Shown: positions 43,388 through 64,000, counted from the stretch's first letter. The stretch: 64,000 nucleotides of DNA from an uncultured Candidatus Saccharibacteria bacterium (GCA_964559915.1 CAZLJP010000002.1:130423-194422), one strand, 5' to 3'. The notes: generated by a model from the sequence alone, not told the origin. Translations and numbers: made by a program.

Positions 43388-43395
43388 GACAGTTC

Positions 43396-45105: not shown

Positions 45106-48100
45106 TTACCGTACCTGCATCCTTACGCTGTTAATTTGCATAGTAGTGATGGTATTACCATCCTTACAGACCAGACGTACTAGTACCTCGGCTTTAGCAT
45201 CGTTTTCTATCTGGAACCAGTCACTCTTCAGAGCGCCCGTCCTGTCAGTGGCCAGGTTGCCAGTGGCGGTCAGGTCTTGCCAGCTCGGGTTGTTATCGGT
45301 CAGAGCATATTGCAACTTGCAGCTCGCACCTTGTGGTGCGGCAGTACTGATATTTGCCAAGAGCCTTACCTGGTTCGCATTACCCAGATCAACCCATGTA
45401 CGGTGTTCACCTGGCAGCTCAGTCTCATTGGCTGGTTGCTGCCAAGCCAAGGTTTCGCTCGCCAAGCTGTATTCGCTAAAGGCCGTTTGTAGACAATCTT
45501 GCCACTTGTCGTTCTGATAGCAGCGGAACTTATTCATCTTGCTGTTGTAGTACTGCGCACCATTGACTCCGGCTGGATCACCGTCACTGCTCTTGGTATC
45601 CAGGACAAATAGCACTGTTTTGCCATTGTTGCCAGCGCCAATCTTAACCTTGCCAGTGAGAGTATCAACATTAAGCGCGTTATCGCCGTTAGCTGACTTC
45701 ACTGCCAGAGCGTTGGTACTATCGAGTTTCAACTCCAGAGCACCAGAGTTGAACACGGTGAATACACCATTGCCGTCCTTGGTGAGTGTCAGGAGATTTG
45801 CATTGCCGGTGGCGGTCAGGCTGATGGACTGTGCGCCGATTGATGTCACGCCGCTCAGAGCGCCAACACCAGTTATGCCGCCGTTATTGTTACTTAATCC
45901 ACCGACTATTGATGCGCCACCAGAAGTCATGTTCAGGCCAGTTATATTCTGCAGTACACCGGTATTTGTTAGTCGTAGGTCGCCGCCAGTTGTAACACTG
46001 CTGAGTACTGCGTTGCCCTGGCTATCCAGTTTCTTAGCAATCTCGGATGTAGCTTTAAGCGTGTAGATGTTCAAAGCATCGTACCTCACGTGCCAGTAGC
46101 CGTACTCGTCCTGATAAGTTAGTTCTGGGAAGACGGAGCCCAGCTGCTGAGCCAATACACCGGTCTGGTGTTCGGTGTCACAAGAGGTATTTGACTGCTG
46201 GAAGTATGCGTTGTCACAAGCAAAATCGAAGGTTACAGTTTCAATATCTTTAATCTTATCAAGTACGTTGTCGTCGAGTGACAAGATGTTTGTCTTGAGC
46301 CGCTGGTCAGATAGACCAACACCCGAACAAGCACTGTAGCCAGTGATAATACCACCACTCACCACCGCCTGGTTGAGATACTGGTTGTTGCCACAAGTTA
46401 CGGTAATACCACTTACGCCATTTCGCTGGTACACACCAGTGGTGTTGATGTTACCTGATGCCGAGATTGTAGTGATGCCGCTCAGAGCACCAGCCGAGCT
46501 AACATCAAGCCCAGTCGAACTGATTGAGAAGGCATTACTGCCGCCGCCAAGAGTAATCGCTCCTGTACTTGTACCTGTGTTGATATTGACCGCGTTGTTG
46601 GCATTGGTGTTGAAGTTAATAGCACCGACTGCTGTTAGCCCGCCAGTTAGCGATGTTAGACCATTGCTAACGGTCAGCGTATTTGTACCGGTTATAGTTG
46701 TTGCACCGTTCAGAGATATAGCGCCTGTACCGGTACCGAAGGTGCCCGTACCACTGATAGAGAAGTTACCACTGCTCTGTGTAAATCCAGTTATTCCACT
46801 AAGCGCACCACTGTTGATGATTAGGCCGTTGATGGTATTTGTAGCTGTTGCACCGGTGATGGCGCCAGATAAGCTCAACGTTGTTACGCCGCTCAGAGCA
46901 CCAGCAGATGAAACATCAAATGCGGTTGAGTCTATCGTCAGGGCATTGCTGCCACCACCGATTGTAATAGCACCAGTACCTGTTACAGAATGGGCACCAC
47001 TTGTTTGGCTAAATCCTGTGATGCCACTCAAGCTGCCGCTATTGACGCTCAAACCGTTGATAGTATTGGTTGTGTTGGCACTGATGGTACCACTTGCGGT
47101 AACACTGGTGATTCCTGATAGTGCACCAGCAGATGAAACATCGAAGTTGGTCGAATCAATGGTCAGTGCGTTGCTGCCACCACCAAGCGTGATAGCACCG
47201 GTGCCAGTCACCGAGAAGGCACCACTTGTTTGGCTGAAGCCGGTGACAGCGCTCAGACTACCGGCATTGATAATCAGGCCGTTAATGGTGTTGCTGGCAG
47301 TCGGAGCAGAAATAGCACCACTAGCAGATATCGTAGTTGCGCCTGTAATTGCTCCGCTTAGGCCGAGTGAAGTACCGCTAATCGAACCAGCGCCAGTGAT
47401 GTTACCACCGCCGAGCGCCAAGTTGCCACTACTGAAAGTGATGCCCGTCACACCACTTAGTGCACCGCTATTGATGCTGAGGCCGTTAATCGTATTGCTG
47501 GTAGAAGCCGTTATGGAGCCAGAGGCGGTTATAGAAGTTACCCCAGCTAATGAGCCAGCATTGATTATGCCGCCATTTGCCAAGTTCAAGCTGCCGCTCG
47601 TAAATGTCAGGCCAGTGACCCCCGTAATTGTTCCAGCACCAGTGATGCCGCCGCCATTATTCGTGATGCCACCGTTACTAACTATCAGGCCACCGCCGGC
47701 AGTGATTGTTTGAGCGGCAGATGTTTGCAAATTGCCCAATATATTAACAGTTGAAGACGCGTTACCAATACTCAGCGTTGTTGCTGCACCACCAATGTTA
47801 AGCGTAGTCACATTTGTATTGAGCAGGTCAAAGCTGGTAAGGCTCGTTTCTATGCTGTTTTCGTTGTAATAGGTGGTGCCGTTACCGGTTGCGACGCCCG
47901 CAATGAAGTAGCCTCGCCCAAAACGATTTGTCAGTGTCGAACCAGTGTCAGTGCCACCAATCTCGGGGATGTAATACTCTGTCAAGCTTGCACCGTTAGA
48001 CCAAGTCAGATTTGGCGTGATGCTCAGAGCAGAGGCAGTTTTGCTCGTGATTTTGGCATACGTTCCATTAACCAGAACGTAGTTTCCTACATCAAAGTTG

Positions 48101-50427
48101 GCAGTATTGCCCGAACCGACTTGTATAGTGCCTGGCGCCAAGCCACTACCACTAGTGGCGGTTGCAGAGCCATCAAGCTGACGGAAAGTAGTTGTGAGAC
48201 TGCCGTTAGCGTCTATCTTCAACGCATCATTGGTCCCGATGGTAAGCGTGCCGCTCACATCTAAGTCACCACTGAGATTCACGTTATCAAGCAATTCAAT
48301 CGTGCTACCAGCATCCAGTCGAATCTGGCCTGTGCCGGTGAGCGAGATATTGTTATTACTGCCTGTAGTCGTTATCTGTAGTGTGCCACCGTTCGTGACA
48401 AGTGGGGTTGTGACTGAGGTAGCAAAGCTAACAGCAGCCTTGGTATCTAGTGCGTTACAAGTGCCGCCGCTGCCCAGCGTGATAGCATTGCCGGTGCCGC
48501 TCAGGTTGCCCGTGCCACTTGGACATGTGAGCGTTGTATCACCACGAACTGCAGACGTACTTGATGAACCATAGTTGACCGCAAGACCAATACTGCCTGC
48601 GCCATTGGTAATGGTAAGACCGCCACTGTTTGTCAGCCCAGCTAATGTATAGCCCGAACCGTTGCCAATCAGTAACTGGCCGTTTGCAGCTGCGGAACCA
48701 TTTACCCCTGTACCGCCACGAGCCACCCCAAGTGTACCGGTGGTGATAATCGCAGCATCGAGTGAGGTGGTGCCGGCAACCGTTAAGCGACCTTGGGCAT
48801 CAACAGTGAAGGTCGGAATTGTGGTAGTTGAGCCGTAACTACCTGGCGAAACAGCTGTGTTAGCCAGGCCAAGCACGCCAGCATTGTTTGTTAGACCAGT
48901 GCCGGTTAAGTCAGTAAAGCCTTCGCCGTTAATCGTTAGCGTATCGCCTGCGCCAAAGGTAATCCCGCCGTTGGCCGTGATAAGACCTGCTACACCAAGC
49001 GTACCGGTCAGGTTCGCGGTATTACTGATAGTCTGGCCGTTGATTGCACCAGAGGTGGTGAGGGTTGTGAAACTCGGATTAGCACTGAAGTTAATGTTCA
49101 GTGTTCCACCCAGTGCCACACTGCCATCACCGCTCAGATTACTACCATAGTTCAGGTTGATTGAACTGTTCTGCAAAGCAGCATTGGCCAGATTACTAAT
49201 GGCTACGTTGCCGGCAGCTGTCAGGCGACCTTGGGCATCAACCGTAAAGCTCGGTACAGATGTGCTCGAACCATAGCTACCTGCCGAAACAGCGGTATTT
49301 GCTAAACCAAGCACTCCAGCATTATTCACTAGACCGGTACCCGTCAAATCAGTAAAGTTCTCGCCATTGAAGGTGAAGGTGTCACCTGCCTCAAGTGTGA
49401 GACCACCGTTGAGCGTAGTCAGACCAGTTACCGTTAGAGTACCAGTCAGGTTGGCCGTTGCGTCTATGTCCTGGCCGTTGATTGCACCAGATGTGATAGT
49501 GCCGCTGGTGCTCAAATTACCACTGGCATCGATTTGTAGTGCGTCACTTGTGCCGACGGTGAAGAGCGCGGCTGGGGTGGTATCACCCACGCCTATATTG
49601 CCATTGGCCAGTATGGTGAATTTCTCGGTGTTATTGGTTATAAACCGTAGGGCGTAATTATCGGTGGTACCGAGGACACCGTCAGCACCAAAGGTACTAC
49701 CGTTCTGCATGAACGCCAAACCACCACCGCTACAAGTGGTTGTCAAACAGATGGTGCCAGAGGCATCCGGAAGTGTATACGTTCGGTTGTTCGTCAGTGT
49801 GCCAAAGTCCAGCGTACCAGTAAAGCCACCGACTGTTTTTTGTAAATTGGTCGCGGTGGTGGCTATACCGGCCCTCAGCGCATACGGCACCGCCGTTAGC
49901 TTGATACGTGGTGTCATTTCACCGTCACCATTGACGTTCATGGTCAGCCACTTTTCCTGCGACCAATCGATGGTGCCAGAGAACGGTGTCACACTGCCCA
50001 GATTGGCACTGAAGTAACCGTTCTTGACGCTGACCGTCTCTGTTTCGGTCCATTCGTTGGTGCCACTAGTGACTGCGTCGTACAGCTTGAACTGGATACT
50101 GTAACTGCCGTCATCAACCAGTGAACCACCACTGTTCAGCAGACGACCCTGGAAGTTGAGCGTGCTCGATGTAGCCGCATATACGCGCGCACTCTCGCCC
50201 GCGCGCGTATATGAATATACAGTCGCTAACAGGGGTGAAACGACCAAAACAAAAATGACTCCAACCAACCATTGTGTAATGGTGTTTGGAGTCGAGCGTC
50301 TGCGTACTCGCGTATACGCAAAACGTGGCCGTTTATGGCCAAAAATAAGGTCAGTCACCTTGTATTTTTGTTTGTTTTGTTTTTGGTTGTTAGTCGAAGC
50401 AGTAGCCTTTTTGACTATCGTTTCCAC
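45106..50427 (-). CDS. giant membrane-anchored tail-fibre-like surface protein with internal peptidase-S74 (intramolecular chaperone/autoprotease) domain
   Basis: 1773 aa with a basic N-terminus plus TM segment (WLVGVIFVLVVSPLLATV). The N-terminal domain reads LNFQGRLLNSGGSLVDDGSYSIQFKLYDA...TPRIKLTAVPYALRAG, as seen in tail-fibre-domain proteins. Long G/T/S/N-rich beta-repeat arrays follow. The S74 signature GLSDQRLKTNILSL...VTFDF...GVLAQQL is at residues ~1371-1470. Confidence 0.8.
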   Translation of the reverse strand: METIVKKATASTNNQKQNKQKYKVTDLIFGHKRPRFAYTRVRRRSTPNTITQWLVGVIFVLVVSPLLATVYSYTRAGESARVYAATSSTLNFQGRLLNSGGSLVDDGSYSIQFKLYDAVTSGTNEWTETETVSVKNGYFSANLGSVTPFSGTIDWSQEKWLTMNVNGDGEMTPRIKLTAVPYALRAGIATTATNLQKTVGGFTGTLDFGTLTNNRTYTLPDASGTICLTTTCSGGGLAFMQNGSTFGADGVLGTTDNYALRFITNNTEKFTILANGNIGVGDTTPAALFTVGTSDALQIDASGNLSTSGTITSGAINGQDIDATANLTGTLTVTGLTTLNGGLTLEAGDTFTFNGENFTDLTGTGLVNNAGVLGLANTAVSAGSYGSSTSVPSFTVDAQGRLTAAGNVAISNLANAALQNSSINLNYGSNLSGDGSVALGGTLNINFSANPSFTTLTTSGAINGQTISNTANLTGTLGVAGLITANGGITFGAGDTLTINGEGFTDLTGTGLTNNAGVLGLANTAVSPGSYGSTTTIPTFTVDAQGRLTVAGTTSLDAAIITTGTLGVARGGTGVNGSAAANGQLLIGNGSGYTLAGLTNSGGLTITNGAGSIGLAVNYGSSSTSAVRGDTTLTCPSGTGNLSGTGNAITLGSGGTCNALDTKAAVSFATSVTTPLVTNGGTLQITTTGSNNNISLTGTGQIRLDAGSTIELLDNVNLSGDLDVSGTLTIGTNDALKIDANGSLTTTFRQLDGSATATSGSGLAPGTIQVGSGNTANFDVGNYVLVNGTYAKITSKTASALSITPNLTWSNGASLTEYYIPEIGGTDTGSTLTNRFGRGYFIAGVATGNGTTYYNENSIETSLTSFDLLNTNVTTLNIGGAATTLSIGNASSTVNILGNLQTSAAQTITAGGGLIVSNGGITNNGGGITGAGTITGVTGLTFTSGSLNLANGGIINAGSLAGVTSITASGSITASTSNTINGLSINSGALSGVTGITFSSGNLALGGGNITGAGSISGTSLGLSGAITGATTISASGAISAPTASNTINGLIINAGSLSAVTGFSQTSGAFSVTGTGAITLGGGSNALTIDSTNFDVSSAGALSGITSVTASGTISANTTNTINGLSVNSGSLSGITGFSQTSGAHSVTGTGAITIGGGSNALTIDSTAFDVSSAGALSGVTTLSLSGAITGATATNTINGLIINSGALSGITGFTQSSGNFSISGTGTFGTGTGAISLNGATTITGTNTLTVSNGLTSLTGGLTAVGAINFNTNANNAVNINTGTSTGAITLGGGSNAFSISSTGLDVSSAGALSGITTISASGNINTTGVYQRNGVSGITVTCGNNQYLNQAVVSGGIITGYSACSGVGLSDQRLKTNILSLDDNVLDKIKDIETVTFDFACDNAYFQQSNTSCDTEHQTGVLAQQLGSVFPELTYQDEYGYWHVRYDALNIYTLKATSEIAKKLDSQGNAVLSSVTTGGDLRLTNTGVLQNITGLNMTSGGASIVGGLSNNNGGITGVGALSGVTSIGAQSISLTATGNANLLTLTKDGNGVFTVFNSGALELKLDSTNALAVKSANGDNALNVDTLTGKVKIGAGNNGKTVLFVLDTKSSDGDPAGVNGAQYYNSKMNKFRCYQNDKWQDCLQTAFSEYSLASETLAWQQPANETELPGEHRTWVDLGNANQVRLLANISTAAPQGASCKLQYALTDNNPSWQDLTATGNLATDRTGALKSDWFQIENDAKAEVLVRLVCKDGNTITTMQINSVRMQVR
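46480..47700 (-). repeat. in-frame tandem coding repeats (~68-76 aa TINGL units) inside the 1773-aa gene
   Basis: The DNA motif ATTGA...CCGTT(G/A)AT recurs with CCGTT at 46826, 47054, 47279 and 47483 (periods 228, 225 and 204 bp). CCAGCAGATGAAACATC recurs at 46901 and 47126. The protein unit is TNTINGLxxNSGxLSxxTGFSQTSGAxSVTGTGAITxGGGSNALTIDSTxFDVSSAGALSG. Outer boundaries are approximate. Confidence 0.6.
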
Positions 50428-51693: not shown

Positions 51694-52581
51694 CTAGTGG
51701 CGAATCAGGGGTTGGTATTCTACACTTGGTCGAGAGTACTGAAGGAGTGCCCACATAGCCAGGACGGTACTATGGTCATTCGCCGTTTTACTGCCAATCT
51801 CGGCTGCCCACCCACCATTTGGCATCTGCTCTTTGGCAATTTGGTCTATCCATTCTTGCTTTACGTCACTACGATTACCAGACAGTAGTAAAAACGCAAT
51901 TGCCTCATACCGTAAGTCTGCAATAGTAGCTGAACCTCCTGCGATTGCGAGCATCCCCCTATTTACTTGAGATTCAAGTACCTTGGCACTGTCGGGTATA
52001 TCACAATTATTATCTCTAATAAAACGAAATGCCAGAGCGACGTGTGTCAAATCATACTCACCTCGACCGTAATTATCCTGCATGGTATTCCAAAAGTTTT
52101 TCGGCAAAGAAAGATTATCGCAGTTAGCAGCATATACGTTCGTAAGTGATGTACCTGCAAGTGGTACAGATATTCCATCTTTGAATACCTTTTCAGGAAA
52201 CGCGATACGAGCAAGATAACGCAGTTCTATGGCACTCTGGGTTTGTGCCGTAGGTATATCAAAAGGCGCGTTTGTCACACTTAACTCCGCAGGAAGATTA
52301 TAGCTTCGCTGTAAATAGTCAAACAATAGACGCTGAAATGGGTGTGCCGAAGTTGTCATGGTCATTTGGTAAGTCTCAGCTCTACGTATCGCCTTCTCCG
52401 CCGGGCTCAACGCATCAAAATGCTGCTGGGCAGCCCTTAGCGCTAACTTGTGACGTTCATAAGTTAGCTTCTTGGTACTAATAGTTATTGTGGCGAACAT
52501 TAGGTAAAGCGCGAACACTGTGGCAATTATCGTCAGCAAGCTTTTCTGGGTGAAGAAAGATTTACGTAGAAAATATCTCAT
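51694..52581 (-). CDS. hypothetical N-terminally anchored protein, weakly alpha/alpha-toroid (prenyltransferase/terpene-cyclase-repeat)-like
   Basis: 295-aa ORF with an N-terminal TM segment (LLTIIATVFALYLMFATITI). The C-terminal NGGWAAEIGSKTANDHSTVLAMWALL resembles the QW/GGW repeat of that fold. The resemblance is weak. It is separated from the Kelch gene by 4 nt. Confidence 0.45.
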   Translation of the reverse strand: MRYFLRKSFFTQKSLLTIIATVFALYLMFATITISTKKLTYERHKLALRAAQQHFDALSPAEKAIRRAETYQMTMTTSAHPFQRLLFDYLQRSYNLPAELSVTNAPFDIPTAQTQSAIELRYLARIAFPEKVFKDGISVPLAGTSLTNVYAANCDNLSLPKNFWNTMQDNYGRGEYDLTHVALAFRFIRDNNCDIPDSAKVLESQVNRGMLAIAGGSATIADLRYEAIAFLLLSGNRSDVKQEWIDQIAKEQMPNGGWAAEIGSKTANDHSTVLAMWALLQYSRPSVEYQPLIRH

Positions 52582-52585: not shown

Positions 52586-55500
52586 CTAGGGCTGAGTATC
52601 CAGTGGTTGCTGAATACCTTCAGTAAAGGTCTTGCCGTGGATTAGTCGCCGTCCCGGGTTACTATTATAAAAGAGTGTCAGGTTATCCAGTGTTGGACCA
52701 CGACCAATATCGTCGGGGTAACCATAGGTCTGTGACGCATCCACACTAATGGTCATAAAGAAGTAGCGCCCACAACCAATGTTTGTGCCACCACTATTTT
52801 TAACCGTATATACACCTACGGTACCGAGAGTTACGTCACCCACATTAGTAGCTTGACCATAGGCAGACATAGCCGAACCGCCACAAGCCTTAGCAACGTC
52901 GGTTATGAGCGGGTCATTCATTGAACGATATTTAAGTTGCCATCGAGCACCAATAGAGTTATCGGTACCATTCATAAGCCACTTGGTTGGGAATACGTCA
53001 CTACCAGCATCAATTTGTCGAGAATAGGTGGCAACTTGCGGCTGCGATAGGAAGCCCGTCTGAGTAACACGAGAACTAGATGGATACGCTATAGTATTGT
53101 CACCATTTGCAACAACATAGACATCTTCTAGGGCAAAACTATCCGTCGTAGTACCGTTGTTTCCAAATTCATACCAACGTATGCTGGCCGTAGTATTCGC
53201 GGCTATGCTTACGGCCAACGGTTGTAAGGGTTCAAACTGCGCATAGTTATACGTAGCTAGGTTGTTGTAGGCACCACCGTTATAAGACACCTGTAGGATA
53301 ACCCTGTCGGGGTTAAGCCCGAGAAAGCTGTTTTCGCCAGTATAACAAGTACCGGCACCAGTCGTGATATCACTTGTCGGCATATAGAGCTTGAAGTACA
53401 GAGTACCCCCAGAAGCAATACCAAATGTCTTTGTGGTTGCTACCGCACCCGCAGCAGTACCCGCGGCCGTACTCGCAGTAGTACCACTGAGGGTTTTAGT
53501 TATGGAGGTAGATTGACATTTTGTGTCTGCCGTCATATTGGTTATAGAAGCCCATTGACTGGCGTCATAGTATGGAGAGCCTGTATCATCAAAATCATCT
53601 TGCATTACAATTCCTTGGCAACCGCCGCCAAGCAGATACGACTTGCCCTGGTAGTACGTGGCGGCTACGCCATAACGTCCACCGTCAAAATTACGGTTTG
53701 TCTGATACCACTCACCGATTCCTGACGGATTGTTACCTGTTGCAATAGTACTGTTGGCACTGATTGGCGCAACCAGAGTACGAGCTGCGCAGTCGTTAGT
53801 TGATGACCGTCCGCCAAAGATATACATGTAGCCATTTACGGCAAACCCATCTGCCTGGCGAATTGGTGACGGCATGTTAGTGGTGTATGTCCATGTGCCG
53901 AGGCTTACTGTCCCACCGCTTTCAGTAATTTTGTTGTACTGTACGTCACTGAGGTAGTTGGTGCCATCGTATCCGCCCAATATGTAGATATTATTAGCAT
54001 ACGTAATCACTACATGGCCACTGCGAGCGACGTTAAAACCAGTCAATGAGGTCCAACTATCCACGGCAATATTACCACCAGCGCTCAGAGATGGGCTTAC
54101 GAATATGGTTGTTTGCACCGCAGAACTATCGTTATAACCACCGGTTATATAGATACGATTATTCCATACAGATGCACTAAACTGCGTACGCTTAACCGCC
54201 GCTCCGCCGCTCGTATCACCAATTGCACCAGATGCATTACTCCATGAAGCAATGTTGCCCGAACCATCAGGGGCAGCATAGTATATGGTATCTTGTGCCG
54301 TGTTCAAGTTACTGCCAGTCTGTCCACCGATAAAGTAGAGCGTTCCGCCTACGACTTCTAGCTGACCAAAGCCACGTTTGGCGGGTAACGCAGCTATGCT
54401 ACCTGCAGTCCAGGCAGTAATTGATCCATTTGGATCTATGGTGCCTTTTTGAACGTTTGTAGTAGTGTCGGCACATTCCGTAGAACCCGTACAACCACCC
54501 GCTATGTATATATATCCATTATAAACTGCTGCCGAGGCACCAAGTCTGTCAGTGGAGCCCGAATTATCGTACAAGGTAGATGAAACAGAATACTTAGCTG
54601 GTGCGCCGCTATCGTTGTTATAAATCTGGAATGTCTGCACGGTATTATCTAATCCGGTGGACGCACAGTTTGGAGGTGTACCACTATTACAACCACCTAT
54701 AACGTAAGCATAGGAATTTGATACTGCCAGACCAAGCCCCCAACGTTGGTTAATAGTAACGATAGAAGTGTCGAACGAATCTATGTCACCCGTACCAACA
54801 TTTATCTTCGCAAACTGAATGTCTCGCAGTGTACTAGCAATACCGCTGTTATAGCCGCCTACTACATAGAGATACCCATTATAGCCAAACGCAGACCCCC
54901 GGCCGCGACCAATGGAAAGTGCGTTGGAGGTTAAGGTCCAGCCACTCCCTACAGTTACTACATTATTACTATTATCAAACTTCGCATAACGCACCTGTGT
55001 AAGGTCAGATGTGCCAGGCGCATTGCCACCCACAAGATAAATATAGTTGGCATAGACCGCACCGGCGTGTTGACCCAAACCCACACCGGAAGCGCCCGTC
55101 ACGGTACCAATCTGTAGCTGTCCACTGGTACTACATCTGTTATCAGCGCCTCCGCCCGCTCCATCAACACCAAGACTACCATTAGCCATGACGTTACACT
55201 TCCATACATTCTGCGTATAGGTACTGCAGTTACCGCTACTTAATGCCATGCAGCCACCAAATATATAGAGATTGCCGGGTATTGTTGCTGCGCTGGAAGG
55301 ATTGGCGCGCGCGTAAGCATAGGTATAGGTGACCTGTGTGTTTGAGGGCCAGCCAAGTGTATTAGTGAGTAATGCAGTGGTCATACGCTGCTCTATCCAG
55401 GAACCGGTCCAACTACCATCCGCATTTGCTTGATTCCTATACACTGCATTCTTTAGTGTGCCGTTACCCTGATGGCCGCCAATTATATAGACAAAGCCAC

Positions 55501-58500
55501 CGAATACAGCAGTAGCAGCACCGCCAACGCCATTAATTGCTGCATTGCCATTACTATCTATTGTATTGGTATCATCTATACACCAAGTACCGTTAGTAGC
55601 ACCAGCACATGTTGGCGGGCTTTTAAGGCGACCATTACTATCAATTGCTGCGTAGGCAGTATTGTCAGACATAGAAGTACACTGGTAGGTTATGCAGCCA
55701 CCTACCACATATATGAAACCATTAAGAATGGCTGTTGATACCAGCATCTGACCTGCTTGGCCACTACCGGATCCCCCTGGCGGCAGGCTGCAGTCGTAGG
55801 GGTCAGGATCCTGACAATTACCGTTACCCGGATCCTGCGATACGCTTACCGTTGAAGCATCGCCATCGGCATTAATAGGGCCATATTGAATATCTTTGTG
55901 GGTCGCGTAACAATCACCCGAGCCGTTTTGCCGCGAACAACCGCCAAACCGATATAATACATCTTGCCATGCAATGAATGATGCACCGATGCGCTGATGG
56001 TTTACGTAAGCCATAGTATTCCAGACATCTAGCGTACCGTCAGAATTAATGCTAGCGATTTGGACGTCATTGTTAATCGCCGTTGTTCCCGAACAATAAC
56101 CGCTGGTAATAGTATTACAACCGCCTGCCGCGTAGAGATAACCTCCCCATATGCCCGTCATGACACCACCCATGGATGCACGAGCAAAAGCCATCTCATC
56201 AACCCCGTCGGCAGCAGCTGTCTGCCAGGAGTTCATCGTACCATCACTATTGAGCCTACTAAATTGAACCGTCTTGAGCGGAGTGCCGTTAGTATTGCCA
56301 CCTATAATATAGAGGTAATCATTGTAAGCCTGTACTGAGGTAGCATAACGAGCAGTGCTCAGAGCTTGGCCATTCGACCAGCTCCCTAGTGTACCATTTG
56401 GTAAAATATCCGCTACTTCTACGGCAGTCGTAGCACCAGATGTATTGGTCAAGCTATCTGTATCGCCACCAAGCACGTACATCTTGCCTTTATAGGCATA
56501 GGCCGAGTGATACGCCCGTGCCCCTGTGCCAATGGTAGCTGTGCTCATACCCGTATCTTTATACCAATAGACCCAGTCAGGTTGATCTGGGTCAGTTGGA
56601 TGCCAGAGTTGTGGTTCCCCGTTTGCCCCAAGCTTGGCTATATATACTGTTTTCTTCAGGTTAGTACCATCATAGCCCCCCGTGTAGTAAAGATAGCCGT
56701 TGTATGCTACCAACGATGCGCCCACATTACCTGCCCCATCAGCAGTTCCTGAACCTGTTGGCAGATTATATGCGCTATTGGTACACCAGCCAGTACATGG
56801 CACTGCGTTACTGCCTGGCGCAGGACTTTCGAGCGACAAGTTAGAGTTATTAATATGTGACCACTGTAGCGTCTGGTTATACGCTGCTGTCGTCGTGTTG
56901 CCATTTACTACGATACTTACCGAGTACCACGTATCACTCACACCAGCACTGGTAGGTAGCGAGGCCGTGCCGGTGCTAGTACTGGAATTAGGTGGTGAAT
57001 CTATCTGCGAAGATACAAATCCCACGCCCGTACCAGCCACACCAGAGCTATGACCACTAGCGATATCAGTGTAATTATAAGTACCGTTGGCTGGTGCGAG
57101 TGGTGAAAAGCCTTGGGCAACTGGGGGGTCATTTGTAAAACTGGATGCACTGATGATGAGGGAACCATTGGTCGTTGGTGTTATGGCCGGGAAGCTTGGT
57201 GTATTGGTGCCATTAGAGTTTGTGGCTGCGGCAGCAATTAAATAGTTACTGGCAGCAAATTCTTTTACCCGCATAATAACACCGCTATTGAGCTGACTGG
57301 TTGATGTTGTCCAGTTGTATGATGCCGCCTCATTGCCGCCACTAATATTTGCACCTATCTTGTAAGAAACGGCTATTCTGGTGTTTGCGTAATACGACGT
57401 CCAACCTGCCGGCGCTGTGATAGTTGCATTTTGCGTAGCAACAATAGCTATATATAAATCACCAGAGGGCCGAGTATCCGGCATATTCATCGTGAAGGTG
57501 GTATCGGAGGTGGCGTCGGTACTAATCTTTTTATCGGCAATGTAAGGCATTATTTGGCCACTGCGGCCACCAGCACGATATAGATAACCGCTGGCTGCAG
57601 CCACACTCTGATCGTATGTTGCGTCGTTCATAGCGCCGTTTTCGGTCCACTTATTAATACGGGCGCCAGTAGTAAAGCCTTTTTTGAACTGCTCTGTTGC
57701 AATATCAAATGCAACGTTAGTCTCGTTATTACCGTACATCAGCTGGGCGGCTGATTGGATATAGATACTTGGGTCAATGGATAGTGGATAGCTGGCTTGC
57801 TTGAGGTTTTCTGCAACTAATGTCAGTTTGTTGCCATTGAGTTCGTACCGTACCTGAACTGATGACTGGTCATTGTCTTTCTCCTTGACTACCGGAGCGG
57901 GAATGCCAAATAAGAACTTGTCCTTATCTGCGTTTTGCTTAGCCTTTTGTAATAGTTGAGCATCATTGTCAGAGCCCGTAGAAACATTGCCATACAGTGG
58001 TAGGCTAGACCCATAAATACCGATTGACCCATCGGCTTCGAGCTTTGCCTCTACGCCATCAGGTAGTGAAAGCTCGTATTCGAACTTCATTTTGTCCTTG
58101 CCCCGTGACTGTAGTAATATATCCTCTTTTACTGAGGCGACTTGGGCCGTATATACTAAGAATCCGTCAGAACCAGACAGCGGATACACTATCTGGTTAG
58201 CATCCTGTTTGCCCTGAGCCAGTCCAAAAAGTGGCTTCATAGTTACATCTACGTTGTTAACCACATCCGTGACAGTTGCGCCCTGCTTAGGGTCTTTGGC
58301 GAAGCTGGCGGTGATGCGTGGGTCGCCATTGCCAGTCTTAAAGGTAGTAGCTGTTGCTGGGGCTGGCTTGTAACCCTCGTTATATACAAACTTTTGGTCT
58401 TTGGTGTTGAGTTTCAGCATTGTGCCCAGATGGGCATTAGTGTTTGGGATTACGCTACGGCTTGCGCTGGTAATTTTGTACGACACGTTATCCAGGAACG

Positions 58501-58792
58501 GCTGCAAAACAGCAGCAATGGTAGAAAATATAAATAAGCCGGCCACCGCCCCGGCATACACACGATTCCAAATGTTCTTATCCGGCCACTGTGCAAAGCT
58601 GGTTTTGCGGAATCGGTTCCAGAGTGTTTCTCTGTAATCTGCCGCTACTTTACCAAGAGAGCGAACCAGCCAGTACTTCTCGCCAGGGTGACGTTCATGA
58701 GTGGTATGTCGGCCATGACTCGCACCATGAATAGAAGGCCGTATATGCGGCCGTTCATCACGATTACCCCTACCCGGTTTTAGTCCGTCCAT
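52586..58792 (-). CDS. giant membrane-anchored surface protein with 18 Kelch-like beta-propeller blades
   Basis: 2068 aa with a His/Arg-rich cytoplasmic N-terminus and a TM segment (VYAGAVAGLFIFSTIAAVL). There are eighteen occurrences of the blade signature hydrophobic-Y/F-x-x-GG (for example YNGYLYYTGGY, YKGKMYVLGGD, YNDYLYIIGGN, YANNIYILGGY). Confidence 0.8.
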   Translation of the reverse strand: MDGLKPGRGNRDERPHIRPSIHGASHGRHTTHERHPGEKYWLVRSLGKVAADYRETLWNRFRKTSFAQWPDKNIWNRVYAGAVAGLFIFSTIAAVLQPFLDNVSYKITSASRSVIPNTNAHLGTMLKLNTKDQKFVYNEGYKPAPATATTFKTGNGDPRITASFAKDPKQGATVTDVVNNVDVTMKPLFGLAQGKQDANQIVYPLSGSDGFLVYTAQVASVKEDILLQSRGKDKMKFEYELSLPDGVEAKLEADGSIGIYGSSLPLYGNVSTGSDNDAQLLQKAKQNADKDKFLFGIPAPVVKEKDNDQSSVQVRYELNGNKLTLVAENLKQASYPLSIDPSIYIQSAAQLMYGNNETNVAFDIATEQFKKGFTTGARINKWTENGAMNDATYDQSVAAASGYLYRAGGRSGQIMPYIADKKISTDATSDTTFTMNMPDTRPSGDLYIAIVATQNATITAPAGWTSYYANTRIAVSYKIGANISGGNEAASYNWTTSTSQLNSGVIMRVKEFAASNYLIAAAATNSNGTNTPSFPAITPTTNGSLIISASSFTNDPPVAQGFSPLAPANGTYNYTDIASGHSSGVAGTGVGFVSSQIDSPPNSSTSTGTASLPTSAGVSDTWYSVSIVVNGNTTTAAYNQTLQWSHINNSNLSLESPAPGSNAVPCTGWCTNSAYNLPTGSGTADGAGNVGASLVAYNGYLYYTGGYDGTNLKKTVYIAKLGANGEPQLWHPTDPDQPDWVYWYKDTGMSTATIGTGARAYHSAYAYKGKMYVLGGDTDSLTNTSGATTAVEVADILPNGTLGSWSNGQALSTARYATSVQAYNDYLYIIGGNTNGTPLKTVQFSRLNSDGTMNSWQTAAADGVDEMAFARASMGGVMTGIWGGYLYAAGGCNTITSGYCSGTTAINNDVQIASINSDGTLDVWNTMAYVNHQRIGASFIAWQDVLYRFGGCSRQNGSGDCYATHKDIQYGPINADGDASTVSVSQDPGNGNCQDPDPYDCSLPPGGSGSGQAGQMLVSTAILNGFIYVVGGCITYQCTSMSDNTAYAAIDSNGRLKSPPTCAGATNGTWCIDDTNTIDSNGNAAINGVGGAATAVFGGFVYIIGGHQGNGTLKNAVYRNQANADGSWTGSWIEQRMTTALLTNTLGWPSNTQVTYTYAYARANPSSAATIPGNLYIFGGCMALSSGNCSTYTQNVWKCNVMANGSLGVDGAGGGADNRCSTSGQLQIGTVTGASGVGLGQHAGAVYANYIYLVGGNAPGTSDLTQVRYAKFDNSNNVVTVGSGWTLTSNALSIGRGRGSAFGYNGYLYVVGGYNSGIASTLRDIQFAKINVGTGDIDSFDTSIVTINQRWGLGLAVSNSYAYVIGGCNSGTPPNCASTGLDNTVQTFQIYNNDSGAPAKYSVSSTLYDNSGSTDRLGASAAVYNGYIYIAGGCTGSTECADTTTNVQKGTIDPNGSITAWTAGSIAALPAKRGFGQLEVVGGTLYFIGGQTGSNLNTAQDTIYYAAPDGSGNIASWSNASGAIGDTSGGAAVKRTQFSASVWNNRIYITGGYNDSSAVQTTIFVSPSLSAGGNIAVDSWTSLTGFNVARSGHVVITYANNIYILGGYDGTNYLSDVQYNKITESGGTVSLGTWTYTTNMPSPIRQADGFAVNGYMYIFGGRSSTNDCAARTLVAPISANSTIATGNNPSGIGEWYQTNRNFDGGRYGVAATYYQGKSYLLGGGCQGIVMQDDFDDTGSPYYDASQWASITNMTADTKCQSTSITKTLSGTTASTAAGTAAGAVATTKTFGIASGGTLYFKLYMPTSDITTGAGTCYTGENSFLGLNPDRVILQVSYNGGAYNNLATYNYAQFEPLQPLAVSIAANTTASIRWYEFGNNGTTTDSFALEDVYVVANGDNTIAYPSSSRVTQTGFLSQPQVATYSRQIDAGSDVFPTKWLMNGTDNSIGARWQLKYRSMNDPLITDVAKACGGSAMSAYGQATNVGDVTLGTVGVYTVKNSGGTNIGCGRYFFMTISVDASQTYGYPDDIGRGPTLDNLTLFYNSNPGRRLIHGKTFTEGIQQPLDTQP

Positions 58793-59263: not shown

Positions 59264-62200
59264 TTAATTGTTGTTGTACACAAAGTCGAGGTTTTCGACA
59301 TATATGTTCCCGTTACTCTTGGACTTCATATCAATCTTGAAGATGATGTTGTCGCCCGCAGCAAAGCTACAGGCTCGTTCATCACCGCCAAACGATGTCT
59401 GTTCCCAAGTACCTGTTGTCGAGTTAATGGTCGTGGCAGAGCCACAGGAAGCAATATTCTGTGCCGTGGTTGGTGGCTTTCGGAAGACCTGTAGAGTGGC
59501 GATGGCATTAGATGTACTGTCCGTGAGTGCCGTTAGCTTGATGGTGTTGCTGTCATTAAATTCTTTAAACGTACTAGGAAGTTTGTAGGTGACGTAGATG
59601 CTATAGACCTGTTCTGTTGCCTGTGGTGATGTCCAGTGGTAGTAATTTCGTGCTTCGTGGGTTGCACAGAGAGTACCAAGCGTCAGAACGCCAGACTCGG
59701 TAGAACAGAATTCTGAAGTCATGACACCGATACCAGCAGAGTTGCCATTGCCTGGGCCACCCAACACCGCACCTGCATATTCAGGCGTCAGGGTTATTAT
59801 GTTATCTGGTGATGAACCACAAGCACCCCAGCCGTCAGCCTCGTAACACTGGATACGGCCCGTGGTTGTGTCGTAGTACATAGAGCCAAGGTAAGCATCA
59901 TTATTAGCAGCAATCGGTGCACTAGCAGCGCGATCAAGCGTCAGTAGCGTGATTGGCCCACCCTTATTAACACCACCTACCTGTACATTATTAGAGTTGT
60001 TAGTGTTCAGTGTGATGGTCAGAGCATCTATGTAGAGAGTTCGTGTAGTCGCGTCTGTCTGGTATATAACCAAGTCTGGGTCAGAAATACCAGAACTTGA
60101 GGTTGTCACAATACACGTAACGCGCTGCCATCCAGTTGATGGAATACTCTGAGTATTGTAGTCAACACACTGCTGTGCGGCGGCTGGCGCGCCGTTTCCG
60201 CCAGCTGGTAAGAATCCAGCAGCGATTGTAGCGGTACCCGTTGATGCTTTTGCGTAGAAGGTGACGAGATACTGGGTACTGGCTGCAGGCGTAACAGCCA
60301 TATTGTTTCGAACACCCTGAGTTGCTCCTGTAACACCTACCGATACAGCGTATTGGCCATCGTAGACAGTACTTGATTGAGATGCGGGTGCAGCGCCATT
60401 GTAAGTGCCCCAGTTGCTGCCAAGAGAGCTACTGACGCTACCGTCAGCCGCAAAGGTCATATTGGCGTTAACTTGTACGCTCAGGTTATCAATGTAGAAC
60501 ACACGCGTTGTGCCATCAGTCTGACGAATGAAGACAGAGTTATTGCTCGTGATTGAGCCTGATGCGATAAAGGTACAAGAGATACGAGACCAGTTAGCCT
60601 TGGTGACAGTCTGACCGCTCGCACAAGTTACCGTGCCTGTATTAGTGCCGTCTGGAGAGTACACAATCTGCAGACCCGAGAAGCCGCTGTAAGCAGCGTC
60701 TGTCTTAGCCGTGAAGGATACTGCATAACTCACACCAGAGGATAGTGCCGTTGAAAGGATGTTGCGGGCACCATGATTAGTGGCAGAGGTACTGACACTT
60801 ACGGATGACTGACCAGTAGCATAGTTACTTACATCACGACCTACTGAGCCGCCACTTGGGGTTGCCTGCCAGTTAGTGCTAAACCCTGTTGATGTCTCTG
60901 CGCCGCCGTTGACCGCATATTCTGTAGCGTTGTTATTTACGCTGAGGAGGTTGCTGCCAGTGGAGCTCTGGACTTCTAGTAGACCACCGACAATTGGAGT
61001 AGTACCGTTGTTGCGGATAGTAAAGCCATCTGCGTTACCGCCAACTGGGTTAAGCAGGATTTCTGCGCCACCAGCACTCGTCAGTGTGTTGTTGTAGGCA
61101 GACTGAAGGTCAGTAGAGCTAGATGCACCAGCAGCAGTCCAGTCAGTACCGTTCCATATAAGTGTAGCAGTGCTGTTCTGCTTCATAGCGATATCAATTG
61201 GCGTACGGCTAGCATTCATGCGGATAGTGAAGTCGCTGGAGCCACTGCGGCCAGCAACGTACACGATACGACCGATAACATTCTGGGCTGGGTCGGGTAT
61301 GCTAATTATGACCCCCGTTGTGCTAGCACTGACAGGAATCGTACTGTATGCATTGATGATGCTATTGTCTGGATTATTGAAGCCCTGTACGCCTGGGCTA
61401 CCGAATGTCTGTACTAGAGAGGTGCTGAAAGCGGTCGTTGAAAGATTAACCAGACCCTGTGTGCCAGTACCGAAGCCAGCACCACCAGCGATTGTAACGG
61501 CACCACCGTTGGCATTGCCGGCTGTCGCCGCACCACCCTGGAGAGTTAGTGCGCCGCCAGCTACGCCGGAGTTAGTTGAATTGCCTACTTTGATTGTTAG
61601 ACTACTGCCAGCCCCAGAAGCAGCTGTATTAATATCACCTGTTGAGGTCTGGCTACCAGCTAGGGTTAGTACTCCCGCGGTTGATAAATCAAAGTTAGTG
61701 CCATCTATGGCGATAGTACCGCCGTTGTGGCCGATGCTTATATTAGTAGCATTGCTAGTACCGATACCCAGCGCTACTGCTGTAGCAGTGTCAAACAGTG
61801 GTGAGTACAGTGCTGTGCCTGCAATACCTGTGCCGGATACATTAAAGTTACCTGTTTGCGCTGTACCAGGAGTAGTTGACTGCAATTGGATAGAATCACC
61901 GCCGCTTGAGCCAATGATACGCCAGCGGCTTGATGCACTGTCGTAGGCCAGTTGTATAGAGCCATTAGCAGGCATAATACTGTTTAGACCGCTGCCTGTA
62001 ATAATGCGATTAGCAGCAGTGCCGCCGCTATCATTCTGGATTGTCAGAGTACTGCCGCTGGCGTTCATCAGAGTGATGATGCGACCATCTGCGCCACCAG
62101 TTAGACCAGTCAGGATTGGAGTAGAAGTAGCGCTTGTGACACGGTGGAGCACACCAGTACCAAGAGTTATTTCCTGGGTGCCAGTGACTGTGTAACTCGT

Positions 62201-64000
62201 GGTGTTTCGCTGGAAGGCTACATTGCCGGTGTTGGCAACAGTCAGATTAGAGGTAAAGCCGGCAGCCTCATCTACTGTTAATGTACCGTAGATTCTTGTA
62301 TTTACGCCTGTACGAGAGATTGAAACAGCTGTTGAGTTGGTATCTGTCCCGATACTCAATGTACCGCTGCTAGCGCGACCAACCAGTGGTGATAATACGC
62401 TGGTATCAGCATATAACGTTCGCCAACCATTGCCACCGGTAGCCCCAAGGTCAAGACCACTTGTGCCAACCAATAGCGAAGTGTTCACTGCGACTGTACC
62501 ACTGAGGTTGCTGAGTTGCTGGTTAGCACCACCACCTGCTACTGCAGTGCCGCCAATGACACGCCAGACACTTGATGCGCTGTCGTATGCTAACTGCACA
62601 CTTGAGCCAGCAGGTACGGACAAAGTACCGCCCGTACCGGTAACGACATGGTTTGCCGGAGTAGCGCTGGTGCTATTGCCTATAGATACTGCGTTAGCAC
62701 TGGCATTTACCAGAGTGATGACACGGCCGTCTGCCCCGCCTGCTATGCCATTAATAGTAAGAGCAGATGCGCTAGTGATGCGGAACAGTACACCAGTGCC
62801 AAAGTTGATACTATCTTGTGTGCCAGTTGCAGTGTAGTCGGTAGTGTTGCGCTGGAAGGCTACATTGCCAGTGTTGGCGACCGTAAAATTGCCCGTCACA
62901 GACACCGTATCATTAAGACTTATAGTACCTGTGCCGTTAGCCTGCAAGGTTAGGTTCTGATTCGCTTGGGTGGTAATATCGCTGGTCTGGCCGCCGATTA
63001 GGGTGAGAACCCCTGCCGTTGACAGGTCAAAGTTAGTGGCATCAATAGCAAGCGTCCCCGCATTGTGGCCGATGCTTATATTAGTAGCATTGGCGGTGCC
63101 AAGGCTGAGTGCAGCAGCGGTTGGAGTATCAAAAGCTGGCGCCTGCAGAGAGGTGTCGGCGCGACCAGTGCCAGAAATCCAGAAATTACCAGATTGCTGC
63201 GCAGCGTTCTGGTTATTAATAGATGTGCCGTCAGCACCAGCAAAGGTCCAGACACTGCCGTTCCACATCAAGGTAGCGGTCGCACCAGCGTTGAGCGTCG
63301 ACCCCAACATGCCAAAGCTCGCGCTGCCAATGTTGGCTATATATATGATGCGGCCAGCAGCTGTATTAGTTGGGCTGGGCAACGTAATGGTCTGGCTAGC
63401 TGAAGTTTGGTTAATCGTAAAGCTGGTGTAGATATCAACCGACTGGGCGGCGGTCAGTGGCGTGCCAGGCGTGCCACCCAGTGCACCACCATCAGAGTCA
63501 TTAAGCACAGCCTTAACGGTATTGAGTGTTGCGCCATTGTTGGTGAAGGTCGTACCGGAGCCGGCTGATGCACCAACCGTTAGGTTGCCGTTGTTGGTAG
63601 TTGCAACCCCTACTTTACCAATAGTGATACCAGAAGTATTGGCTGTACCAATAGAAATTGTGCCCGTTGTTCCCGAGCCCGACTTAGTACCTGTATCAAT
63701 CGTAAGGTTGCCCGAGCTGTTATTGCTAGCAGTAGCATCACCTGTTTTGATGGTTATAGCACCTGAGGTGTTGCCACTGCCAGAGCTGACGTCACCGCTC
63801 TTGACAGTCAAGTCGAGACTATTAGATGAGCCGCTTACAACATCTGCGGTCTTTAGAGACGGTGATATGAGGCCTGTGTCTGCGCGGCCCGTGCCACTAA
63901 TCCAGAAGTTGGCAGTTGTCTGTGCGCTGCCACTTTGGTTCAGAATATAGCTGGCCGAACCACTGTCAACGCCAGCGTTGGTCCACGCTGTACCACTCCA
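59264..64000 (-). CDS. giant surface protein with duplicated beta-repeat modules and two CBM4/9-like jelly-roll modules (N-terminus beyond the right edge)
   Basis: The track lists 59264-63811 starting at a TTG. I translated 63812-64000 in the same frame and found no stop (…WSGTAWTNAGVDSGSASYILNQSGSAQTTANFWISGTGRADTGLISPSLKTADVVSGSSNSLD-). The gene is therefore open at the window edge, at least 1578 codons. Confidence 0.8.
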   Translation of the reverse strand, partial: WSGTAWTNAGVDSGSASYILNQSGSAQTTANFWISGTGRADTGLISPSLKTADVVSGSSNSLDLTVKSGDVSSGSGNTSGAITIKTGDATASNNSSGNLTIDTGTKSGSGTTGTISIGTANTSGITIGKVGVATTNNGNLTVGASAGSGTTFTNNGATLNTVKAVLNDSDGGALGGTPGTPLTAAQSVDIYTSFTINQTSASQTITLPSPTNTAAGRIIYIANIGSASFGMLGSTLNAGATATLMWNGSVWTFAGADGTSINNQNAAQQSGNFWISGTGRADTSLQAPAFDTPTAAALSLGTANATNISIGHNAGTLAIDATNFDLSTAGVLTLIGGQTSDITTQANQNLTLQANGTGTISLNDTVSVTGNFTVANTGNVAFQRNTTDYTATGTQDSINFGTGVLFRITSASALTINGIAGGADGRVITLVNASANAVSIGNSTSATPANHVVTGTGGTLSVPAGSSVQLAYDSASSVWRVIGGTAVAGGGANQQLSNLSGTVAVNTSLLVGTSGLDLGATGGNGWRTLYADTSVLSPLVGRASSGTLSIGTDTNSTAVSISRTGVNTRIYGTLTVDEAAGFTSNLTVANTGNVAFQRNTTSYTVTGTQEITLGTGVLHRVTSATSTPILTGLTGGADGRIITLMNASGSTLTIQNDSGGTAANRIITGSGLNSIMPANGSIQLAYDSASSRWRIIGSSGGDSIQLQSTTPGTAQTGNFNVSGTGIAGTALYSPLFDTATAVALGIGTSNATNISIGHNGGTIAIDGTNFDLSTAGVLTLAGSQTSTGDINTAASGAGSSLTIKVGNSTNSGVAGGALTLQGGAATAGNANGGAVTIAGGAGFGTGTQGLVNLSTTAFSTSLVQTFGSPGVQGFNNPDNSIINAYSTIPVSASTTGVIISIPDPAQNVIGRIVYVAGRSGSSDFTIRMNASRTPIDIAMKQNSTATLIWNGTDWTAAGASSSTDLQSAYNNTLTSAGGAEILLNPVGGNADGFTIRNNGTTPIVGGLLEVQSSTGSNLLSVNNNATEYAVNGGAETSTGFSTNWQATPSGGSVGRDVSNYATGQSSVSVSTSATNHGARNILSTALSSGVSYAVSFTAKTDAAYSGFSGLQIVYSPDGTNTGTVTCASGQTVTKANWSRISCTFIASGSITSNNSVFIRQTDGTTRVFYIDNLSVQVNANMTFAADGSVSSSLGSNWGTYNGAAPASQSSTVYDGQYAVSVGVTGATQGVRNNMAVTPAASTQYLVTFYAKASTGTATIAAGFLPAGGNGAPAAAQQCVDYNTQSIPSTGWQRVTCIVTTSSSGISDPDLVIYQTDATTRTLYIDALTITLNTNNSNNVQVGGVNKGGPITLLTLDRAASAPIAANNDAYLGSMYYDTTTGRIQCYEADGWGACGSSPDNIITLTPEYAGAVLGGPGNGNSAGIGVMTSEFCSTESGVLTLGTLCATHEARNYYHWTSPQATEQVYSIYVTYKLPSTFKEFNDSNTIKLTALTDSTSNAIATLQVFRKPPTTAQNIASCGSATTINSTTGTWEQTSFGGDERACSFAAGDNIIFKIDMKSKSNGNIYVENLDFVYNNN
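61690..63130 (-). repeat. large in-frame internal duplications within the third giant gene
   Basis: CGCTGGAAGGCTACATTGCC occurs at 62208 and 62850 (642 bp = 214 aa apart). GTGGCCGATGCTTATATTAGTAGCATTG occurs at 61727 and 63065 (1338 bp = 446 aa apart). The protein modules VAFQRNTTxYTxTGTQ...GGADGRxITLxNAS...QLAYDSASSxWRxIG and GNFxxSGTG...FDTxTAxALxxGTxNATNISIGHNxGTxAIDxTNFDLSTAGVLTL each occur twice. Confidence 0.65.

Follow-up and report, generated by a model that had tools for sequence, protein, structure and literature searches.

A Kelch protein of Candidatus Saccharibacteria with 18 blades, predicted to form three propellers on a membrane anchor

Which large proteins do the parasitic, ultrasmall Saccharibacteria display at their surface, and what might these proteins bind? 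These bacteria, like other Patescibacteria, grow attached to bacterial hosts; to our knowledge, the only host-recognition molecules described so far are type IV pili and some small adhesins. The question is raised by a 64,000-nucleotide stretch of DNA from an uncultured Candidatus Saccharibacteria bacterium (GCA_964559915.1, CAZLJP010000002.1:130423-194422; hereafter the window), whose minus strand carries a 6,207-nucleotide open reading frame (ORF) at positions 52586 to 58792 coding for a protein of 2,068 residues. An earlier description made without database searches, the sequence-only reading, had counted exactly 18 Kelch-like blades in this protein, enough for three six-bladed propellers, and had placed them on a membrane-anchored stalk between non-Kelch flanking domains. 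We report here a computational analysis of the protein, its family and its locus.

Eighteen Kelch blades and their arrangement

All 18 motifs of the sequence-only reading were located in the ORF, each in single copy, at residues 401, 697, 767, 823, 882, 942, 1023, 1097 and 1172 for motifs 1 to 9, and 1247, 1304, 1358, 1424, 1481, 1543, 1598, 1652 and 1714 for motifs 10 to 18. Their recurrence is far beyond chance. A gap of 296 residues separates motif 1 from motif 2, and the other 17 motifs follow one another at intervals of 54 to 81 residues; therefore, no blade is hidden between them. Pfam searches with the whole protein returned Kelch_KLHDC2_KLHL20_DRC7 (E = 5.6e-34), Kelch_1 (E = 9e-28, nine stretches) and Kelch_6 (E = 4e-19), the strongest Kelch matches being at residues 1479 to 1665. 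When the protein was cut into six pieces, the three that bear the repeats all scored as Pfam Kelch independently, one for each third of the repeat region. Weak matches to Kelch_4 and Kelch_3, which are named after the central domain of galactose oxidase, correspond to generic Kelch similarity. Among solved structures, the closest in sequence are six-bladed Kelch proteins, namely the designed SAKe6, KLHL12, KEAP1 and KLHL20 (E down to 1e-15), and blades 2 to 17 align as full Kelch blades with the R-x-G, h-Y-x-x-GG, V-x-x-x-h and W signatures. Taken together, the Pfam scores, the independent matches of the three thirds and the closest solved sequences show that the repeats are real and belong to the Kelch family.

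The count of exactly 18 blades holds with a nuance at both ends, as blade 1 is a true but interrupted blade and blade 18 is degenerate. A hidden Markov model (HMM) built from blades 2 to 17 only and used with a threshold of E ≤ 0.01 found blade 1 at residues 388 to 432 (E = 0.0026), compared with E values of 1e-15 to 1e-18 for blades 2 to 6, and did not detect blade 18 at that threshold. We generated two overlapping AlphaFold2 models from 38-sequence alignments, covering residues 330 to 1420 and 1000 to 2068 (mean predicted local distance difference test scores [pLDDT] of 78.9 and 78.5, and predicted template-modeling scores of 0.68 and 0.69, respectively). Assignment of secondary structure with DSSP gave four short strands per repeat in blades 2 to 17 and a partial set in blade 18 (residues 1710 to 1714, 1717 to 1721 and 1728 to 1732), after which the chain runs directly into the next domain. 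In blade 1, the modeled strands A and B (residues 396 to 400 and 403 to 407; pLDDT of approximately 88) are separated from a later strand at residues 642 to 647, which precedes blade 2, by some 12 long beta-sandwich strands at residues 417 to 629. A modeled W-containing strand at residues 383 to 387 precedes blade 1 and may take part in propeller closure.

Homologs that lack the intervening domain clarified the status of blade 1. A 223-residue segment is missing from the divergent homologs P0190, P0197 and P0206, and after removal of residues 413 to 635 the query aligned colinearly with these insert-less sequences (score of 128, versus 46 ± 7.5 for shuffled sequences) across the pre-propeller motif, strands A and B of blade 1, its strands C and D, and blade 2. 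Therefore, blade 1 is genuine, and a whole domain is nested in its B-C loop. The N-terminal flank is thus not simply the stretch of approximately 330 non-Kelch residues of the earlier description, since blade 1 itself holds this nested domain. The nested domain gave no significant Pfam or Protein Data Bank (PDB) match, in a PDB search with the family profile or in Pfam scans of individual members. Another divergent relative, P0188, has a domain of approximately 270 residues (residues 675 to 943) inserted after blade 5 instead of in blade 1; because the insertion site differs, insertions into blade loops arose more than once in the superfamily.

The models suggest that the 18 blades form three six-bladed rings, made of blades 1 to 6, 7 to 12 and 13 to 18. 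When we compared both models with the PDB using Foldseek, all propeller-sized matches among the top 50 were six-bladed Kelch propellers, with the exception of the first-ranked one, a multi-Kelch flagellar chain of 4,407 residues; the seven-bladed galactose oxidase was absent from the top 50 of both models. The six-bladed matches had template-modeling scores normalized to the target (TMt) of 0.72 to 0.80 and root mean square deviations (rmsd) of approximately 4 to 5 Å over 320 to 410 columns. They included LZTR1 (9mf0 and 9mez; TMt of 0.73 to 0.76, rmsd of 4.0 to 4.6 Å), KLHDC2 (6do5; TMt of 0.74), KLHL12 (9y8o; TMt of 0.73, rmsd of 3.7 Å), SAKe6 (TMt up to 0.80) and KEAP1. The low-rmsd alignments spanned approximately 400 columns in the first model and 350 in the second, which are the sizes of blades 7 to 12 (residues 1011 to 1410) and 13 to 18 (residues 1411 to 1760). 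Thus, propeller 2 aligned over approximately 400 columns to LZTR1 and KLHDC2 (TMt of 0.72 to 0.76, rmsd of 4.3 to 5.2 Å), and propeller 3 matched LZTR1 and the NS1-BP Kelch domain over approximately 350 columns (TMt of 0.73 to 0.75, rmsd of 4.0 to 4.4 Å). The only inter-blade stretches of low confidence are residues 986 to 999 and approximately 1390 to 1415, at the boundaries between blades 6 and 7 and between blades 12 and 13. The number of blades is also stable, since 119 of 120 close homologs have 16 to 18 detectable blades, as do four deeply divergent relatives. The 6+6+6 partition is based on these six-bladed matches, the alignment lengths, the confidence profile of the linkers and the blade number, and the expectation that the protein would model as beta-propellers was borne out in the two models.

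Two points weigh against this arrangement. We infer the partition, as well as the geometry of the disulfides described below, rather than observe it directly. Moreover, an all-against-all hhalign comparison of the 18 blade family profiles revealed no clear six-blade period (38 at offset 6, versus approximately 32); the propellers are thus not recent duplicates of one another. As the excess at offset 6 was marginal, we dropped internal duplication with a period of six as evidence for the partition.

Stapled loops, membrane topology and variable modules

The protein contains 26 Cys residues, none of them before the transmembrane (TM) segment, and the 22 located in the propeller region are kept in every one, or almost every one, of 45 aligned homologs. 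Most are close together in the sequence, forming the pairs 666/670, 892/900, 952/961, 993/1001, 1033/1038, 1062/1071, 1181/1189, 1368/1376 and 1434/1440; the conserved residues also include 1199/1220 in propeller 2, and Cys1668 and Cys1725 in propeller 3. A Cys directly follows the motif in 7 of the 18 blades (blades 5, 6, 7, 9, 12, 13 and 18), in line with the recurrent GGC that had been pointed out earlier. These GGC cysteines open short C...C loops in the B-C loop, immediately behind strand B, as exemplified in propeller 1 by Cys892/Cys900 and Cys952/Cys961. In the pairs 1759/1816 and 1970/2007, both residues either occur or are missing together, with Cys1970 and Cys2007 co-occurring in 42 of 45 homologs, and the Cys count is even in 40 of 46 sequences. 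These patterns suggest that the conserved pairs form disulfides that staple short loops, mostly B-C loops.

Outside the propeller strands, only one 19-mer is strongly hydrophobic, a single TM segment at residues ~78 to 100, consistent with the TM anchor proposed from the sequence. The head that precedes it contains 16 Lys and Arg residues versus 8 Asp and Glu residues. Cys conservation and pairing, the single TM segment and the basic head, which follows the positive-inside rule, all argue for a signal anchor with an N-in/C-out topology and for an oxidized, extracellular ectodomain. They thereby support the earlier idea of a disulfide-stabilized extracellular scaffold, with disulfides that are predicted. 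The basic charge of the head and a YWLVRSLGK motif are conserved in homologs. The description of the head as His-rich applies to this protein, with 6 His in 77 residues, but it is strain specific, since homologs contain between none and 6. No LPXTG sortase signal is present at the C terminus, which ends in ...RLIHGKTFTEGIQQPLDTQP and has no hydrophobic segment.

We mapped conservation as the mean identity per region in an alignment of 46 full-length sequences. The propellers have 52 to 59% identity, and the pre-propeller segment (residues 341 to 394) reaches 67% with many invariant residues. The C-terminal domain and tail (residues 1906 to 2068) are the most conserved part of the protein, at 65 to 78%. 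Identity decreases to 40% in the nested domain, and the jelly-roll-like domain (residues 1736 to 1905) is the most variable region, at 27% with 36% gaps. The LYFKLYMP (residue 1798) and VILQVSYNGGAY (residue 1831) sequences, noted early on as jelly-roll-like, indeed fall in an all-beta region of the model, and a scan of this region as a separate fragment matched Pfam Reelin_subrepeat-B at its gathering score (27.0 bits, E = 4e-6). The N-domain (residues 101 to 340), with a family mean identity of 52%, is also found in divergent insert-less homologs; it had no Pfam match. A nearly invariant loop in blade 17, PISAN..I..GNN..G.GEW (residues ~1676 to 1697; window positions ~53702 to 53767, minus strand), has pLDDT values below 50 at residues 1680 to 1689 although it is among the most conserved stretches, which makes it a candidate functional or partner-contact site.

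The C-terminal domain had no Pfam or PDB sequence match, even with family profiles. Its profile retrieved 228 matches among 1.84 billion representative proteins, 64 of them at E ≤ 1e-30, and all were located at the extreme C terminus. A second tier of homologous proteins, of 1,400 to 1,800 residues, has the same succession of TM segment, N-domain, multiple Kelch repeats and C-terminal domain without the nested and jelly-roll domains. The variable slot occupied by the jelly-roll is lost or filled by other domains in relatives, a cassette-like exchange. In P0121, this slot (residues ~640 to 830) holds a domain that resembles the one nested in the blade (PGDLLLVLF...GAWT). The layout of the second tier and the slot of P0121 indicate that the scaffold is old and that the two beta-sandwich modules were added to it and can be exchanged. 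Separately, P0040 has an insertion of approximately 280 residues within the C-terminal domain.

A lineage-restricted family and its possible role

A word-indexed search identified 251 homologs, of which 28 are colinear with the query over 98 to 100% of its length at 50 to 95% identity; those of the 28 with a named source come from Candidatus Saccharibacteria. When one genome of each GTDB species was scanned, relatives turned up in 116 genomes, and nearly all of the 80 loci that we retrieved belong to metagenome-assembled genomes (MAGs) of Saccharibacteria or Saccharimonadales. The family is thus essentially confined to Saccharibacteria. Its invariant features are the GNNETN/TTGARI pre-propeller sequence and the SQPQ...GARW...RGPT...HGKTF...QPLDT terminal domain, and in databases its members are labeled "hypothetical protein" or carry generic names. 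The closest genome, MAG GCA_964428995.1, encodes a protein with 95% identity. Some genomes have two giant Kelch paralogs, such as L003 and L051 in MAG HKST-UBA48, or P0057 and P0111 on the same contig of 832,861 bp.

The architecture, presented as unusual in the sequence-only reading, is so relative to characterized bacterial Kelch proteins, yet standard within this large family. The best sequence and structural matches, KEAP1, KLHL12, KLHL20, LZTR1, KLHDC2 and SAKe6, share with it four-stranded blades and the hYxxGG, W and R signature. In contrast, these eukaryotic Kelch domains are single, intracellular, devoid of disulfides and fused to BTB/BACK or other adaptor domains, whereas the Saccharibacteria protein has a nested domain and would have three tandem, extracellular, TM-anchored and Cys-stapled propellers; no BTB or BACK match was obtained by Pfam in the whole protein or its 390 N-terminal residues. 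NanM/YjhT is also a bacterial, extracytoplasmic six-bladed Kelch protein, but it is a periplasmic mutarotase of approximately 40 kDa with a single propeller, unlike this protein of 2,068 residues and 18 blades. In galactose oxidase and GlxA, a secreted Kelch propeller likewise occurs alongside a jelly-roll domain that binds carbohydrates and a beta domain at the C terminus. However, they are seven-bladed enzymes of family AA5 (galactose/glyoxal oxidases) with a Cu site made of two His and two Tyr and a Tyr-Cys cofactor, whereas the propellers described here match six-bladed structures.

Tandem Kelch propellers are found elsewhere, in the axonemal chain 8glv_DA of Chlamydomonas (4,407 residues) and in the jumbo-phage proteins PhiPA3 gp360 and PS119XW (approximately 620 to 630 residues). 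These were the top Foldseek matches when the alignment spanned more than one propeller, with high rmsd values of 22 to 30 Å, so that their propellers are arranged differently relative to each other. In addition, they are not TM-anchored and have neither the N-domain nor the insert and C-terminal domain of the Saccharibacteria family. The YWTD arrays of LRP5/6 and LDLR-type receptors are extracellular, membrane-anchored series of six-bladed propellers with disulfide-rich linkers, which bind ligands at their top face. They represent a functional analogy only, since YWTD repeats are not Kelch repeats, are separated by EGF spacers and are restricted to eukaryotes, with no homology to the present protein. 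We found no literature on Kelch proteins in Saccharibacteria, the Candidate Phyla Radiation or TM7, nor relevant work on large surface proteins, and the combination of a TM segment, three Kelch rings, loop disulfides, a nested domain, a jelly-roll and a C-terminal domain appears to be undescribed.

In solved Kelch domains, the ligand-binding "top" face is built by the B-C and D-A loops. In the Saccharibacteria protein, stapling is predicted for the B-C loops, and that of blade 1 bears an entire extra domain. We therefore lean, cautiously, toward a type II membrane-anchored, ligand-binding scaffold of adhesin-like character at the cell surface, whose variable domains would set its specificity. 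From the cytoplasm outward, the chain would comprise the basic head, the TM helix, the N-domain, the 18 blades in three propellers, the variable jelly-roll and the conserved C-terminal domain. The propellers would represent a rigid platform with Cys pairs stapling the short, mostly B-C loops, on which two fast-evolving beta-sandwich modules are mounted, one in the B-C loop of blade 1 and the other at the junction of propeller 3 with the C-terminal domain. The ligand, a glycan or a protein, would be carried by the surface of another cell or lie within the envelope. The variable modules would adjust specificity, and the conserved propellers and C-terminal domain would bind a partner that stays constant, probably in joint action with the neighboring giant proteins, one carrying carbohydrate-binding modules (CBM) and the other resembling a tail fiber. 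We favor such a role because of these neighbors and because Saccharibacteria in culture are found attached to host bacteria and depend on adhesins at their surface (PMC10633639, PMC11623550). Among the latter, PilX2, a pilin at the tip of the type IV pili that carries a seven-bladed RCC1 propeller, has been implicated in host attachment (PMC11623550), and SEML1_0890 and SEML1_0891 of S. epibionticum are essential adhesins of 196 and 566 residues with immunoglobulin-like and FG-GAP domains (PMC10633639). All are surface proteins of the phylum with beta-propeller or lectin-like domains, but their folds and sizes differ from those of the giant Kelch protein, to which they are not homologous; a link to SEML1_0890/0891 was rejected on these grounds.

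Some observations fit an adhesin-like role less well. In the annotation tables of S. epibionticum ML1, a cultivated oral strain, the term Kelch is absent, and the family is therefore neither universal in the phylum nor universally needed for epibiotic growth. Moreover, host recognition, a constant partner and a structural role are all equally compatible with how well the propellers are conserved. A structural scaffold or spacer of the envelope, S-layer-like or wall-spanning, whose propellers bind self partners such as the neighboring giants, is a reading to which we give a limited but real chance. It would account for the strong conservation of the propellers and of the C-terminal domain across the class, for the maintenance of the gene order with two giants beside the housekeeping parAB, signal peptidase and LytR genes, and for the strictly terminal, nearly invariant C-terminal domain, as expected for a fixed docking partner. 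In contrast, two hypervariable modules and the swapping of domains in the slot are more typical of determinants of ligand specificity, and both the paralogs L003 and L051 in a single MAG and the situation in ML1 also argue against a purely structural protein. The adhesin-like reading may be taken further, in that the locus next to parAB, with its CBM giant, triple-Kelch giant, small membrane protein and S74 fiber giant, might constitute a host-recognition apparatus specific to Saccharibacteria, with the Kelch protein as its core receptor-binding platform and the jelly-roll cassette and nested domain choosing the host bacteria. We consider this extension speculative and rather unlikely as a whole.

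That the protein acts on sugars of the host or own cell wall, as a NanM-like mutarotase or a Kelch copper oxidase with the jelly-roll as a CBM, seems improbable. Some homologs are automatically labeled "N-acetylneuraminic acid mutarotase" by JGI, but these labels are generic COG transfers, and the protein has no NCBIfam match at E ≤ 0.01, to NanM or to any other family. Galactose oxidase likewise joins a jelly-roll CBM to a Kelch propeller, and the adjacent gene codes for CBM_4_9 domains; yet the best structural matches are six-bladed Kelch domains that bind peptides or proteins, and the three propellers have no recognizable catalytic signature. A phage-derived or prophage receptor-binding protein, that is, a tail-fiber module lodged in the chromosome, is more improbable still. 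It would be in keeping with the Peptidase_S74 domain and the PHROG tail-fiber match of the protein encoded at 45106 to 50427, with jumbo-phage virion proteins of one or two Kelch propellers being the top BFVD matches, and with a weak PHROG match of the Kelch protein itself (phrog_8229, a group of unknown function; E = 1e-5). However, the protein has an N-terminal TM anchor, its gene flanks parA, parB and the signal peptidase, LytR and HtrA genes with no other phage genes near the locus among the gene families of the window, the G+C content is uniform across the window, and the gene order is repeated in dozens of divergent Saccharibacteria genomes. We rejected a phage origin on the basis of gene context and synteny.

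The Kelch fold itself and tandem Kelch propellers in the Chlamydomonas axoneme and jumbo phages are already known. Relative to characterized bacterial Kelch proteins, the new features are the presence of what we predict to be three six-bladed propellers per chain, an entire domain inserted within a blade loop, and a C-terminal domain that is new. As the family is large, conserved, probably surface exposed and nearly restricted to one lineage, it represents a testable candidate for host or envelope binding. If it is only a structural coat protein, it will still be a useful lineage marker, of modest general interest.

The giant-protein locus

Features of the Kelch protein and of the neighboring genes are listed in Table 1, in which counts of gene order cover the 80 retrieved loci.

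Table 1. Features of the giant Kelch protein and its gene neighborhood (window positions; protein features in residues)
Feature	Residues	Position	Strand	Basis
Cytoplasmic N-terminal head, basic, 6 His	1-77	58562..58792	-	Charge count, conservation in homologs
TM anchor	~78-100	58493..58561	-	Hydrophobicity, positive-inside bias; predicted topology
Extracellular N-domain, ends YPLSIDPS	101-340	57773..58492	-	Family conservation
Pre-propeller segment, GNNETN and TTGARINKW	341-394	57611..57772	-	67% identity
Blade 1, strands A and B (SGYLYRAGG)	395-412	57557..57610	-	AlphaFold2, blade HMM, colinear with insert-less homologs
Nested beta-sandwich domain in B-C loop of blade 1	413-635	56888..57556	-	AlphaFold2; 40% family identity, second most variable region
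Blade 1, strands C and D with CxxxC loop (C666/C670)	636-684	56741..56887	-	AlphaFold2 strand, alignment; Cys in 45/45
Propeller 1, blades 2-6	685-985	55838..56740	-	Blade HMM, Pfam Kelch, AlphaFold2 four-strand sets
Inter-propeller linker, pair C993/C1001	986-1010	55763..55837	-	pLDDT <50 at 986-999; Cys in 45/45
Propeller 2, blades 7-12	1011-1410	54563..55762	-	Both AlphaFold2 models, strand positions agree
Propeller 3, blades 13-18	1411-1735	53588..54562	-	Strongest Pfam Kelch, Foldseek; blade 18 degenerate
Hypervariable jelly-roll-like domain (DDFDD...LYFKLYMP...VILQVSYNGGAY...FALEDVYVV)	1736-1905	53078..53587	-	Variability, Pfam, AlphaFold2
C-terminal domain and tail (SQPQVA.YSR..., GARW, RGPT, RLxHGKTF..QQPLDT)	1906-2068	52589..53077	-	Conservation, terminal position
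Upstream giant, 1,515 residues, CBM_4_9 in two stretches		59264..63811	-	Pfam E = 1e-8; homolog directly upstream in 73/80 loci
ORF of 295 residues with N-terminal TM, 4 nucleotides downstream of the Kelch gene		51694-52581	-	In 3/80 loci, plus 291-residue gene in closest genome
Single-pass membrane protein, 253 residues		50746..51507	-	Homolog downstream in 63/80 loci
TM-anchored fiber-like protein, 1,773 residues, Peptidase_S74 (endosialidase intramolecular chaperone)		45106..50427	-	PF13884, E = 9e-12

The ORF of the upstream giant starts with TTG and has no N-terminal TM segment, and its counterpart in the closest genome codes for 2,133 residues; near the end of the window, the ORF may have lost its N-terminal part, contain a frameshift or have a wrongly assigned start. 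Immediately downstream of the Kelch gene, the 295-residue ORF had no Pfam, NCBIfam or PHROG match and is a lineage-specific addition to the locus, because of its rarity among the loci outside the closest genome. The 253-residue membrane protein that follows had no Pfam family match and could be a partner or assembly factor.

In the fiber-like giant, the Peptidase_S74 domain is located at residues 1373 to 1436, and the PHROG tail-fiber match has an E value of 2e-10; these similarities suggest a trimeric, self-cleaving surface fiber. A shared C-terminal domain in the two neighboring giants was considered and rejected, as their hhalign comparison was negative. A homologous fiber segment is present in 59 of the 80 loci, often followed by parAB, and the gene order is the same in the closest genome. 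The window is chromosomal, and no tRNA genes were found in it. Downstream of the giants, positions 39026 to 45011 code for ParA, ParB, signal peptidase I, a LytR-CpsA-Psr protein and an HtrA-like protease. Their juxtaposition with the giant-protein locus recurs in distant Saccharibacteria genomes, and the locus may therefore lie near the replication origin.

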